A stretch of 33,821 nt of DNA from a virus (taxonomy: Duplodnaviria > Heunggongvirae > Uroviricota > Caudoviricetes), in the IMG/VR virus record IMGVR_UViG_2671180458_000002; one strand, given 5' to 3'. A program made the position numbers. Of this stretch, positions 25,043 to 31,000 are shown in pieces (within the stretch, counting starts at the first letter, position 1; each line of letters starts with the position of its first letter).

Positions 25043-28000
25043 TGAATTTTATAACCCATAACGGGCGTCAGAAATGACGCCTTTTTTATTGCAGAAAAGC
25101 GAGAGGTAATTATGCGTAAACTTTATGCCGCCATTTTGTCCGCAGCCATTTGTCTGGCCGTATCCGGTGCGCCTGCATGGGCGTCTGAACATCAGTCCAC
25201 GCTGAGCGCGGGGTATCTTCATGCCTCGACGAACGTTCCCGGCAGCGATGATCTGAACGGGATTAACGTGAAATACCGTTATGAGTTTACGGACACACTG
25301 GGGCTGGTGACGTCATTCAGCTATGCAGGAGACAAGAATCGCCAGCTGACCCGTTACAGCGATACCCGCTGGCATGAAGATTCCGTTCGTAACCGCTGGT
25401 TCAGCGTGATGGTGGGGCCGTCTGTGCGCGTGAATGAATGGTTCAGCGCGTATGCGATGGCGGGTGTGGCTTACAGCCGTGTGTCGACTTTCTCCGGGGA
25501 TTATCTCCGCGTAACTGACAACAAGGGGAAAACGCACGACGTGCTGACCGGAAGTGATGACGGTCGCCACAGCAACACGTCTCTGGCGTGGGGAGCTGGC
25601 GTGCAGTTTAACCCGACCGAATCCGTGGCCATTGATATTGCTTATGAAGGCTCCGGCAGTGGCGACTGGCGCACTGACGGTTTCATCATGGGTGTCGGTT
25701 ATAAGTTCTGATTAGCCAGGTAACACAGTGTTATGACAGCCCGCCGGTTCAGGCGGGCTTTTTTGTGGGGTGAATATGGCAGTAAAGATTTCAGGTGTAC
25801 TGAAAGACGGCACAGGAAAACCGGTACAGAACTGCACAATCCAGCTGAAAGCAAAACGTAACAGCACCACGGTGGTGGTGAACACGCTGGCCTCAGAAAA
25901 TCCGGATGAAGCCGGGCGTTACAGCATGGACGTTGAGTACGGTCAGTACAGCGTTATTCTGTTGGTGGAAGGATTCCCGCCGTCACATGCCGGGACCATC
26001 ACCGTGTATGAAGATTCCCGACCCGGTACGCTGAATGATTTTCTCGGTGCCATGACGGAGGATGATGCCCGTCCTGAGGCACTGCGCCGTTTTGAACTGA
26101 TGGTGGAAGAGGTAGCGCGTAACGCGTCCGTGGTGGCACAGAACACGGCAGCCGCGAAGAAGTCAGCCAGTGATGCCGGCACATCTGCCCGTGAGGCGGC
26201 AACCCATGCGACTGATGCTGCAGATTCAGCACGTGCAGCCAGCACGTCAGCCGGACAGGCCGCTTCGTCGGCTCAGTCAGCGTCTTCCAGCGCAGGAACG
26301 GCATCAACAAAGGCCACTGAAGCCTCAAAAAGTGCTGCCGCTGCAGAGTCCTCAAAAAGCGTGGCAGCTACCAGTGCCGGTGCGGCGAAAACGTCAGAAA
26401 CGAATGCCGCAGCGTCAGAACAATCAGCCGCCACTTCTGCATCCACCGCGATCACGAAAGCGTCAGAAGCTGCCACCTCAGCCCGGGATGCGGCGGCCTC
26501 AAAAGAGGCAGCGAAATCATCAGAAACGAACGCATCCTTGAGCGCCAGTAGCGCAGCTTCCTCGGCAACGGCGGCAGGAAATTCCGCGAAGGCGGCAAAA
26601 ACGTCCGAGACGAACGCCAGGTCTTCTGAGACGGCAGCGGGACAGAGCGCCTCAGCTGCGGCAGGCTCAAAAACAGCGGCTGCGTCGTCTGCCAGTGCCG
26701 CGTCAACAAGTGCCGGGCAGGCCTCAGCCAGTGCCACCGCCGCCGGAAAATCGGCAGAAAGCGCCGCATCATCCGCTTCAACAGCCACAACGAAGGCTGG
26801 CGAAGCCACTGAGCAGGCCACGGCAGCAGCGAGGTCAGCTTCCGCAGCGAAGACATCCGAAACGAACGCGAAAGCGTCGGAAACCCGTGCAGAATCCTCA
26901 AAAACGGCAGCGGCATCGTCCGCCAGTTCGGCGGCGTCATCGGCATCATCGGCGTCTGCTTCAAAAGATGAGGCGACCAGACAGGCGTCAGCAGCGAAGG
27001 GCAGCGCCACGACGGCATCCACAAAGGCGACAGAGGCAGCTGGTAGTGCGACGGCAGCAGCTCAGAGCAAAAGTACGGCGGAATCTGCAGCAACGCGCGC
27101 TGAGACAGCGGCAAAACGGGCAGAGGATATTGCATCCGCCGTGGCGCTTGAGGATGCGAGCACGACGAAAAAGGGGATAGTACAGCTCAGCAGTGTGACC
27201 AACAGCACTTCCGAGTCACTGGCGGCAACGCCAAAAGCAGTTAAGGCCGCGTATGACCTGGCTAACGGGAAATACACAGCACAGGATGCAACGACAGCAC
27301 AGAAAGGGATAGTCCAACTAAGCAGCACGACCAACAGCACGTCTGAAACGCTGGCGGCAACGCCAAAGGCAGTAAAAGCAGCCAATGACAATGCTGAGAA
27401 ACGTCTGCAGAAAGATCAGAACGGTGCGGATATCCCTGGCAAAGACACCTTTACGAAAAATATTGGTGCCTGCCGTGCCTTCGGTGGGTCAGTAAGCACA
27501 ACAACAGGAAACTGGACGACTGCACAGTTTATCGAGTGGCTGGATTCTCAGGGAGCATTTAACCATCCATACTGGATGTGCAAGGGTTCCTGGTCTTATG
27601 GCAATAATAAAATCATTACTGATACTGGCTGCGGTAATATTCATCTCGCCGGAGCTGTCATTGAAGTAATGGGGATAAAGTCAGCGATGACGATCCGCAT
27701 TACCACTCCGACCACATCCAGCGGTGGCGGAACAACCAACGCCCTGTTTACCTATATTAATCACGGAACAGATTATTCACCTGGCTGGCGAAGGGACTAT
27801 AACTCCAGAAATAAGCCAACGGCATCAGAGATCGGGGCGCTACCGTCAGGTGGAACAGCAGTATCATCAGTTAATCTGGCTTCAAAAGGTCGGGTAGCCG
27901 CGCTGACAGACAATACGCAGGGGGCAGCAGGTCTTGAGTTATACGAGGTGTATAACAACGGATATCCAACAACGTATGGAAATATCATTCACCTGAAAGG

Positions 28001-31000
28001 GATGACAGCCGTTGGCGAAGGTGAGTTACTCATCGGCTGGAGTGGTACAAGCGGTGCTCATGCTCCGGCATTTATTCGTTCACGACGGGATACGACCGAC
28101 GCAAACTGGTCGCCGTGGGCGCAGCTTTACACCTCGGCTCATCCTCCTGCAGAGTTTTATCCAGTCGGTGCACCAATCCCGTGGCCATCAGATACCGTTC
28201 CGTCTGGTTATGCCCTGATGCAGGGGCAGACTTTTGACAAATCTGCATACCCGAAACTTGCAGCCGCTTATCCGTCAGGCCTGATCCCTGATATGCGTAG
28301 CTGGACGATTAAGGGCAAACCTGCCAGTGGTCGGGCCGTATTGTCTCAGGAACAGGACGGCATTAAATCGCACACCCACAGCGCCAGCGCATCCAGTACG
28401 GATTTGGGGACGAAAACCACATCGTCGTTTGATTACGGCACTAAATCCACGAATAACACCGGGGCGCATACGCACAGTGTGAGCGGTACAGCCGCAAGTG
28501 CCGGAAACCATACTCATAGTGTCACAGGCGCATCAGCAGTCAGCCAGTGGTCACAAAATGGGTCAGTACATAAGGTAGTGTCTGCGGCCAGTGTGAATAC
28601 AAGTGCTGCAGGAGCGCACACTCATAGTGTCAGCGGCACCGCTGCATCTGCAGGTGCACACGCACATACTGTCGGTATTGGTGCTCATACGCACTCGGTT
28701 GCGATTGGCTCACATGGACACACCATCACCGTTAACGCTGCTGGTAACGCGGAAAACACTGTCAAAAACATCGCATTTAACTATATTGTGAGGCTTGCAT
28801 AATGGCATTCAGAATGAGTGAACAAGCACGGACCATAAAAATTTATAATCTGCTGGCCGGAACTAATGAATTTATTGGTGAAGGTGACGCATATATTCCG
28901 CCTCATACAGGTCTGCCAGCAAACAGTACCGATATTGCACCACCAGATATTCCTGCTGGCTTTGTGGCTGTTTTCAACAGTGATGAGGCATCGTGGCATC
29001 TCGTTGAAGACCATCGGGGTAAAACGGTTTATGACGTAGCGTCAGGGGACGCGTTATTTATTTCTGAACTCGGTCCGTTACCGGAAAATGTTACCTGGTT
29101 ATCGCCGGAAGGGGAGTTTCAGAAGTGGAACGGCACAGCCTGGGTGAAAGATGCAGAAGCAGAAAAACTGTTCCGGATCCGAGAGGCGGAAGAAACAAAA
29201 AACAGCCTGATGCAGGTAGCCAGTGAGCATATTGCGCCACTTCAGGATGCTGTAGATCTGGAAATCGCAACGGAGGAAGAAACCTCATTGCTGGAAGCCT
29301 GGAAAAAGTATCGGGTGTTGCTGAACCGTGTTGATACATCAACTGCACCTGATATTGAGTGGCCTACGAACCCTGTCAGGGAGTAATCATTGGGATTATG
29401 CCGCAGCACGTCTTAAGCAAGAACGTGCTGCGGTTGGATGCTATTTTTTCCCTGAAGCGGAAAACATTACTACAGTACCTTGAACCTTGGTTTTAACATT
29501 CTCGAAATGCTCTGAGAGTATATGTGTTAAGCCTTCTTCGGAATCTTTTGTGTTTGAAAAGATGCCTTTCTGATTGTAAATACGCATCAGTTTTTGACCG
29601 AAGCTATTGTGCACAACTCCATCGCCAAGAATTGTGGCTCCGTATAGAGTTCCATCGTCAGTTAAGGCCTGCGCCGCATTGCGTATTACACAGCTTTTTG
29701 TAGATATATTTCCAGGCAGGCAGTGAAGAAGGTAAAACATGGAAATGGAATCAAATTGACCATGTAACGCCGCGGGATAAGGTTCAAAAACATCATGGCT
29801 AATTTTATGTTTAATTTTTGATTCCCCAGCCCTTGTAGATGCCGCGTTCAGGCTAGCTTCGTTCAAATCCATTAAAGATATCAGACTACTCTCAGGTACG
29901 TGAGTAAGGTAAAACCCAGTTCCAACACCAATATCCAGATGGTTGTTACCTAAATGTTCCAGAAAGTGTGGAAGAAGGTGTTCCTTTGTAGGACATCCCC
30001 ATGCAAGCCGATTTGATACTCCCAAAACCCACCAGTCATAAAGCTTTAGGGTAAGTGGTGTGTAAATTTTAGCCCCATCATCTGTGTTTTTTTTCATTAA
30101 TTTCACCATGTTATAGTTTTATTTGTGAATTAAATCAATTATGGCGATGAATTACAAGGGGTTAAATGCTGCCGCAGCATAGCGATATTGAAATAGCCTG
30201 GTATGCTTCGATACAGCAGGAGCCGAATGGCTGGAAGACCGTCACCACACAGTTCTACATCCAGGAATTCAGTGAGTATATTGCGCCACTGCAGGATGCT
30301 GTAGATCTGGAAATCGCAACGGAGGAAGAAAGATCGTTGCTGGAGGCATGGAATAAATATCGGGTATTGTTGAATCGTGTTGATACATCAGTAGCTCTGG
30401 GTATGAAGCTGTTTGTAACTCATGTTACAGTAACAGCCATTACTATCTCGAAGGTGCAAAATGTATATTGATTTGATATTTTATAAATTTACTTCGAATC
30501 TGGCACGTCAACTTTTGATTAAAGTAATATCAGTTTTCGGCGAAAAAGGACCGTGTACATGAGACGATTTCATACAAGAATAACAAAAATATGAATATGC
30601 TCCCAATGCAATATATGTTTTGCATTGGGAGCAAATAGCGGAATATTTTGAAATTATTGTATTTCTGCTTCAGAATTTCCTGGGCAGTATATATTTTCTA
30701 TTTTTTGTGGAGTGATCAGGTGATGTACAACTGCTTTATCTACACATAAATTAACTCCGGTGAGAGCTAATGTATGCCCATCACCATTTATTGTTAGTAA
30801 CGGGCTGGAAAATTTCTCTGCCATCTTACGGGCATTAATCCAGGGCGTTGTTGGGTCGTATTTGTGTGCTACAAACAGTAAACCAGAGGGCAGAACAGTA
30901 TTTTTCAGGCGAGTTTTGTTCAGGTCGCTATGTATTGGCCATAATTCACAAAAATCAGGTGAATCGGAACGTCCATTGTCAAAGTTAATAGCCGGGAAGG

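Follow-up and report, generated by a model that had tools for sequence, protein, structure and literature searches.

The side tail fibre gene (stf) of IMG/VR virus record IMGVR_UViG_2671180458_000002, a 33,821-nucleotide (nt) stretch of caudoviricete DNA referred to here as the window, very probably encodes a functional fibre of a lambda-like Escherichia coli prophage at the DLP12/ompT locus. Judged from the sequence, the product (Stf) would be a trimeric, modular fibre, and its repeated part would change by recombination one whole unit at a time. This reading draws on the homologies of the individual modules, the periodicity of a long Ala-rich rod, a copy-number polymorphism among related genes, and a hybrid unit present in a close relative. 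Mosaic fibre genes are common to lambda, P1, P2, Mu and T4 and have been described since the early 1990s (Haggard-Ljungquist 1992, Sandmeier 1992/1994, and Hendrix and Duda 1992 are said to have reported such mosaicism among phages); the window gene matches this long-described pattern.

StfN forms a collar at the gpV-gpM junction (PMC12617516), and the N-terminal ~95 residues of the proposed Stf trimer would clamp to the junction between the tail tube and the tip. Following this domain, ~48 heptads with an Ala core would form a rigid proximal rod with a predicted length of ~50 nm, ~15 nm above that of Ur-lambda. Two units of 44 amino acids (aa) and a module of the P1/P2/Mu type would extend the shaft, which would end in a T4 gp37-type tip composed of a collar, a needle held by seven His-x-His (HxH) metal sites, probably occupied by iron, and a 33-aa head. 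Tfa would help to fold the tip, and the tip would make the first, reversible contact with the cell surface. Copies of the 132-nt units would be gained and lost through unequal homologous recombination between units. OmpC is established as a receptor for lambda (PMC12617516) and T4 only; for the window fibre, receptor contact through the head is presumed, and we infer from the literature that variation in stf may affect host range.

Modular architecture of Stf

The original prediction, made from the DNA, described a single full-length, mosaic stf reading frame at 25770-28802 with lambda-like ends and a different centre. The frame is open over 1010 aa, with a start that more likely lies at ATG 25776 (1008 aa), and comparison with Ur-lambda stf by blastn reveals the mosaic directly. 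Four blocks match with 79-87% identity: gene nt 1-915 (87%), 1220-1477 (79%, offset by 315 nt), 2398-2676 (87%) and 2884-3033 (85%). No DNA match to Ur-lambda stf was found at gene nt ~1608-2397 (the middle) or ~2677-2883 (the head region); the two genes are not collinear throughout. At the protein level, Pfam recognizes phage_tail_N, two Phage_fiber_2 domains, Collar, and, weakly, Phage_fiber. The resulting module map is given in Table 1.

Window Stf has the features of a lambda-type side fibre: a PF08400 N-terminus, a gene position after J/lom and before tfa, and a long predicted coiled-coil rod. Like Ur-lambda Stf (774 aa) and its Tfa, it belongs to a J-lom-stf-tfa gene order, has a closely similar StfN (93% identical in the alignment of aa 1-120), and combines a heptad rod, a Phage_fiber_2 unit, a gp37-type tip and a Tfa chaperone. 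In Ur-lambda, four Stf trimers are present per virion and adsorption is faster via OmpC (PMC12617516). Unlike Ur-lambda Stf, however, the window protein has a coil that is longer by 15 heptads, two Phage_fiber_2 units instead of one, an unrelated module of ~250 aa in place of the hinge/middle, seven HxH motifs rather than eight, and a different, shorter head cassette. Natural module junctions follow the last Phage_fiber_2 unit and immediately precede the collar; these correspond to lambda R393 and S528, the positions at which functional engineered Stf chimeras have been fused (PMC11338833).

For the comparison with relatives, the sample consisted of five phage records and 80 IMG/VR loci selected for a Stf N-terminus with at least 99% identity to that of the window. 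This survey provided 69 complete Stf open reading frames (ORFs), 77 genes in which the coil could be measured (as the distance from EEVARNAS to AEDIA), and 54 tips. The best 120 database proteins, mostly partial sequences truncated by contig ends, served for coil length and unit count only. In addition, 5,426 complete E. coli genomes were scanned for the Stf-N domain and for the junction between units.

The 44-aa units and their copy number

Within the two Phage_fiber_2 units, 84-nt cores at 27171-27254 and 27303-27386 lie in frame, 132 nt apart, and share 66 of 84 nt and 25 of 28 aa. This duplication, which had been predicted with the same size and spacing, stands well clear of chance, given that 30 codon-shuffled genes reached only 43-50 nt in their best in-frame 84-nt self-matches. 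Each full unit spans 132 nt, and the nucleotide identity between unit 1 and unit 2 is 61% over 132 nt and 79% over the core. PF03406 detects the corresponding KGIVQLSS...LAATPKAVK protein unit as two stretches (E 6e-36).

Among the 69 complete relatives, the unit is present once in 34, twice in 28, three times in 4, and four times in 1, and is absent from 2. The units always follow each other at a 44-aa pitch, and each of three middle-module backgrounds includes genes with different numbers of them. Comparison across relatives, suggested with the original prediction as a check, therefore gives a repeat number that ranges from 0 to 4. The accompanying claim that the repeats are substrates for length variation holds for this unit, at 1-4 copies, and fails for the coil and for the HxH motifs, discussed below.

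A closely related gene indicates how such changes may arise. The stf of PhiR29_1 lacks exactly 44 aa and is otherwise 97.6% identical in DNA to the window gene. Its single unit is a hybrid, with unit 1 at the 5' side, unit 2 at the 3' side, and the crossover within a 17-nt stretch common to both (CTGGCGGCAACGCCAAA). Such a product is expected when units undergo unequal homologous recombination or slippage. By inspection of its units, another relative (L011) has a second hybrid, whose crossover point differs from that of PhiR29_1. The internal units of the three- and four-copy alleles are 89-96% identical to unit 1, and are therefore taken to reflect more recent duplication. The inter-unit junction, a marker of alleles with at least two units, occurs at 1,971 places in 1,706 of 5,426 complete E. 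coli genomes; the Stf-N domain occurs at 15,373 places in 4,845 of them, with a median of 2 and a maximum of 14 per genome.

Tandem-repeat detection, which had also been proposed as a check, did not bear out the expectation: Tandem Repeats Finder identified no real tandem array in stf, just two trivial matches of ~2 copies. The stf repeats are diverged units at the protein level, not simple-sequence repeats. Slippage-prone contingency repeats were considered as a separate class and rejected, as the heptads are degenerate in DNA and the coil is fixed in 74 of 77 relatives. A search for Chi sites as a recombination hotspot found none in the whole window.

Tip, head cassette and Tfa

The tip (aa 796-1010) aligns end to end with chain residues 28-242 of T4 gp37 (2xgf), with 148 of 216 positions (68.5%) identical, and Pfam places Collar at aa 800-846 (E 1.3e-10). 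Like the T4 gp37 tip (2XGF), the last 215 aa of window Stf contain seven HxH motifs, at aa 868-984, all aligned in register, and enclose a head of similar size (33 aa in the window and 34 aa in T4). Unlike in T4, the tip is carried by the side fibre of a siphovirus instead of the long tail fibre of a myovirus, and the head is unrelated: 7 of 34 positions are identical to T4 gp37, compared with 77% outside the head. In the T4 needle, each HxH motif reportedly coordinates iron (Bartual et al. 2010, for 2XGF); by homology, the window motifs are predicted to be iron-binding structural elements. The His-rich repeats predicted near the tip are thus real, in the form of these seven motifs, and the variability in number ascribed to them is not, since 52 of the 54 related tips have seven (lambda has eight).

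Related tips measure 198-242 aa, a spread produced by replacement of the head segment that HxH 3 and HxH 4 enclose. This segment, 32-53 aa long, exists in nine or more unrelated forms among the 54 tips, and these head cassettes assort independently of the middle modules, which confirms the domain shuffling that had been predicted for the gene. The window cassette occurs in identical form in phages 2H10, SPF_0923 and PhiR29. Stf of PhiR29 has one 44-aa unit fewer than that of the window, PhiR68_2 has another head cassette, and 2H10 has a different, longer middle module (in a protein of 1117-1120 aa) together with one unit. 2H10 Stf may resemble StfR of K-12, judging only by the length of 1117-1120 aa and by an stfR label in an unrelated match. 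A further occurrence lies outside the lambdoid phages: the T4-like myovirus vB_EcoM_G2285 (167 kb; H151, 157349-157576) has a fibre tip that shares 84% identity with the window cassette and its flanks. The cassette is therefore in circulation among temperate siphoviruses as well as virulent myoviruses.

It is proposed that conserved DNA flanks at the HxH motifs permit the head to be exchanged as a cassette. Conserved His motifs are said to serve as exchange points in T-even adhesins (Tetart and Krisch 1996-1998); no directly relevant open paper was found on PhiR phages or 'His box' recombination. Tfa does not follow these exchanges. Whatever the head cassette, both halves of Tfa retain at least 89% identity in most variants; the exceptions are two 191-aa variants with a C-terminal part that is 73% identical and one unrelated 296-aa ORF that follows one RDGRR-type allele. 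Co-variation of Tfa with the head cassette was accordingly rejected; the pattern fits a Tfa that recognizes the conserved needle instead of the head.

Copy-number and cassette differences could also be neutral by-products of recombination between co-resident prophages, with the repeats serving a structural role only. With a median of two and up to 14 Stf-N loci in a single E. coli genome, recombination partners would be ample; in addition, the side fibres of lambda are dispensable for plaque formation (PMC12617516), and coil length is essentially fixed. Several points speak against neutrality. The region equivalent to the head cassette has been reported to carry receptor specificity in T4 (PMC9659904), and homology to 2xgf places the cassette at that very site of gp37. 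Furthermore, unrelated cassettes within conserved flanks typically mark selection for receptor diversity, and engineered swaps of the Stf tip alter the strains that are targeted (PMC11338833). We consider neutrality unlikely as a full account of the variation.

A switch of fibre ends by DNA inversion, as in Mu G, P1 C and e14/Rac Pin, was evaluated separately and rejected, there being no gix site, invertase or inverted end. Allowing up to 8 mismatches, 24001-31000 contained no gix/cix-like inversion site, and the relatives that bear pin had none either. The annotated region contains no invertase/recombinase and no inverted alternative fibre end, and the tfa fragment downstream is on the same strand as stf. 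Some relatives carry a Pin-type recombinase after tfa; one is E. coli C8 (L123).

Middle module

When phage genomes were searched by tblastn, the middle module (aa 549-797) proved to share 73% identity with P1 Sv' across 97% of the module, and its first half was 80% identical to P2 H and 71-73% identical to Mu/D108 S'. Residues 541-722 match the Mu(-) fibre 8ju3 (E between 5e-87 and 2e-84; chain residues 178-359 of 488), with the high-confidence stretch of the HMMER alignment ending near aa 699. Likeness to this family begins before the module itself: the preceding Phage_fiber_2 unit and an NGADIP motif match Mu S, in agreement with a structure match between Stf aa 491-570 and Mu S (5yvq). Unlike P1 Sv', which continues for ~160 aa past the matched segment and has its own chaperone, U', window Stf has neither the terminal ~160 aa nor U'. 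Since Sv' extends beyond the match in this way, window Stf holds the shaft part of an Sv'-type fibre, not its end. An internal duplication of the module was also considered and rejected; its two halves have no detectable mutual similarity (E 1.4).

This parentage raises the question of a second binding site. If the middle module bound a ligand of its own laterally, for example the core of lipopolysaccharide (LPS), the fibre would be bifunctional, with the gp37-type tip as the other binding site. The module does come from fibres of phages that recognize LPS (P1, P2 and Mu), and it is intact, at 73-80% identity. However, the part of Sv' that presumably binds the receptor is its terminal ~160 residues, and these, together with U', are what the window lacks; moreover, the 8ju3 match covers just residues 178-359 of 488, and the fold model has a predicted local distance difference test score (pLDDT) of 30. 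A bifunctional fibre is distinctly unlikely, and the middle module is better read as an extension of the shaft.

Proximal coiled coil

The original prediction also reported a long, low-complexity Ala/Ser/Thr-rich tract at about 26170..27100, capable of expansion. Its composition is as described (aa 121-460 are 37% Ala, 23% Ser and 12% Thr), and the interval falls inside 26130..27149; low complexity and expandability are not borne out, since the tract reads as a coiled coil. Set out seven residues to a row, aa 121-460 show no break in register, with Ala at position 2 in 47 of 49 rows, Ser at position 5 in 77%, and Ala at position 6 in 71%. The periodicity of Ala peaks at 3.5 and 7.0 residues with a power that was reached by 0 of 2000 shuffles of the tract. 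The sequence thus predicts a heptad coiled-coil rod, with a trimeric state as the predicted oligomer. In Ur-lambda Stf, cryo-electron microscopy and tomography resolve a collar (residues 1-91), a linker, a proximal coiled coil (102-393), a hinge, and a distal gp37-like part (PMC12617516), an architecture with which the heptad reading of the window tract agrees.

Relative to Ur-lambda, the window coil is longer by exactly 105 aa (315 nt, 15 heptads). Arithmetic from the canonical rise per residue, not measurement, gives a rod of ~50 nm that extends ~15.6 nm beyond that of Ur-lambda. The coil comprises 338 aa in 74 of the 77 measurable close relatives and 233 aa in lambda; among the survey genes, it is 335 aa once, by a 3-aa deletion, and 342 aa once, by a 4-aa insertion. 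Of the best 120 database proteins, 112 have a coil of 338 aa and four have one of 310 aa (a difference of 28 aa, or 4 heptads), and in distant Stf-N homologues of 353 and 534 aa the Ala/Ser/Thr tract spans only 40-60 aa. The existence of 338-, 310- and 233-aa classes and of short distant tracts implies that the coil changes length over long evolutionary distances, mostly by whole heptads. The heptads are read as a structural periodicity under length constraint. Two IMG/VR loci (L044 and L024) contain coil indels that are not whole heptads; the sizes of these, a 3-aa deletion and a 4-aa insertion, resemble a stammer and a stutter. The region 26170..27180 also contains long overlapping ORFs in other frames, for example 26273..27022 (minus strand, 249 aa) and 26452..27135 (minus strand, 227 aa). 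These are by-products of GC-rich, periodic GCN/TCN codon usage and are not supported as genes.

Taken with the 1-4 units, the 233- and 338-aa coil classes would allow fibre length to be a tuned trait that sets how far the tip reaches past the central J fibre. We regard this as unlikely. If it were true, the reach would be adapted to how thick the host O-antigen or capsule is, and unit recombination would be an adaptive length switch, not neutral noise.

Gene start, locus and integrity of the prophage

A protein that is 100% identical to window Stf is already present in RefSeq (WP_024175316.1, 'phage tail protein', from E. coli JNEC-KY202), where it starts at the ATG at 25776. From this codon, Stf begins MAVKISG, like the solved lambda StfN chains, and a Shine-Dalgarno-like GGGG lies ahead of it at 25767-25770. 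Because the RefSeq start and the start of the lambda Stf chains agree, a 1008-aa product is likely, and the true start is most likely this ATG, 6 bases downstream of the GTG of the mechanical ORF. By ORF calls and Pfam, stf lies between lom (25112..25711) and tfa and downstream of J.

Table 1. Features of stf and its surroundings, in window coordinates
Feature	Position	Strand	Basis and remarks
stf coding sequence	25776..28802	+	1008 aa from ATG; mechanical ORF 25770..28802, GTG start, 1010 aa
StfN tail-attachment (collar) domain	25776..26057 (aa 3-96 of the 1010-aa frame)	+	PF08400 (aa 3-136), E 1.4e-71; lambda chains 9e7m/9mgh, E 1.3e-51
Proximal coiled-coil rod (predicted)	26130..27149 (aa 121-460)	+	~48.5 uninterrupted heptads (xAxxSAx)
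Phage_fiber_2 unit 1, 44 aa	27159..27290	+	Pfam PF03406
Phage_fiber_2 unit 2, 44 aa	27291..27422	+	Pfam PF03406; homologous to Mu S residues 98-175 (5yvq)
Middle module, P1 Sv'/P2 H/Mu S' type	27414..28160 (aa 549-797)	+	tblastn; 8ju3
T4 gp37-type receptor-binding tip (collar, needle, head)	28161..28799 (aa 798-1010)	+	phmmer match to 2xgf, E 1.2e-86
Head cassette, 33 aa	28518..28616 (aa 917-949)	+	Between HxH 3 and HxH 4; presumed receptor contact
tfa, tail fibre assembly chaperone	28802..29386	+	Pfam Caudo_TAP, E 3.2e-45; start overlaps stf stop (ATGA)
Terminator-like GC-rich hairpin, lom-stf gap	25738..25759	+	T run; consensus match only, ending 16 nt before stf ATG
Terminator-like GC-rich hairpin, other side of lom	25063-25082	+	T run
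ybcY-like S-adenosylmethionine-dependent methyltransferase	29441..30109	-	Opposite strand to stf
C-terminal fragment of second tfa	30166..30471	+	Caudo_TAP, E 9e-18

The prophage that carries the annotated identical gene is lambdoid and adjoins ompT, envY, ybcH and nfrA, a neighbourhood that we take to be the DLP12 locus of K-12. In the window, the ybcY-like gene and the tfa fragment look like a DLP12-type ybcY/tfaX relic of an earlier fibre module; beyond the fragment lie an alpha/beta hydrolase gene, ompT and envY. Upstream, the sizes and order of the ORFs resemble a lambda-like head/tail set, as judged from ORF length alone. The hairpins listed in Table 1 stand on both sides of lom, and readthrough would be required within the late operon.

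The location itself suggests that stf could be a relic in a defective prophage from which no fibre is made, like the frameshifted stf of laboratory lambda: the DLP12 site of K-12 houses a defective prophage, and the tfa fragment and the ybcY-like gene are found a short way downstream. However, no stop interrupts the 1008 codons, tfa and each of the seven HxH motifs are intact, a head/tail-like set (by ORF length only) lies upstream, and the gene is 98-100% identical to stf of isolated plaque-forming phages, for example PhiR29 and SPF_0923. A relic is very unlikely, and a functional side fibre gene remains the favoured reading.

Several points do weigh against that reading. The copy-number events could be either duplications or deletions. 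The near invariance of the coil in close relatives means that its length seldom varies. With a single-sequence AlphaFold2 model of aa 541-802 at a pLDDT of 30, the fold of the middle module is proposed from homology to 8ju3. Finally, induction of the prophage and assembly of the fibre are predictions from sequence.

Occurrence in other genomes

The gene is already known and is an ordinary lambdoid side tail fibre gene. It is found with 100% identity in three complete E. coli genomes; each of the best 60 genomes listed matches the full length of stf at 98.5% identity or more, and 639 genomes have a match that spans at least 80% of it. Stf of Salmonella phage SPF_0923 is 98% identical to and collinear with that of the window. 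In several E. coli genomes, a macro-domain gene is inserted between stf (99% identical) and tfa; in C8 it is a pseudogene (L123, 6030-6932). Nine other entries carry the label 'macro domain-containing protein' (H57-H59, H62-H65 and H67 among them).

A scan of GTDB for divergent Stf-N domains added only a few distant homologues, which have short Ala/Ser/Thr tracts, and returned mostly lambda DNA contamination in unrelated genomes. More than 15 non-enteric 'genomes' (L089-L104 and others) contain a lambda-type stf that is 93% identical to the window N-terminus; the taxa include Leeuwenhoekiella, Pseudomonas, Desulfosporosinus, Shewanella, Oceanobacillus, Kitasatospora and Bradyrhizobium. These matches lie on contigs of ~48.5 kb or on tiny contigs, several with ~1x coverage, and are likely lambda DNA contamination. 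Several partial Stf proteins (P0020, P0022, P0037, P0042 and others) have been named 'short-chain fatty acid transporter' by NCBI. This is a misannotation, which the Ala/Ser/Thr-rich coil may have triggered.

Implications

The value of these results lies mostly in annotation. For the engineering of side fibres, the relevant point is that the head cassette is naturally swapped while Tfa stays nearly constant, and that the number of 44-aa units is apparently variable from 1 to 4. The window stf thus provides an example of lambdoid side fibres as assemblies of exchangeable modules.

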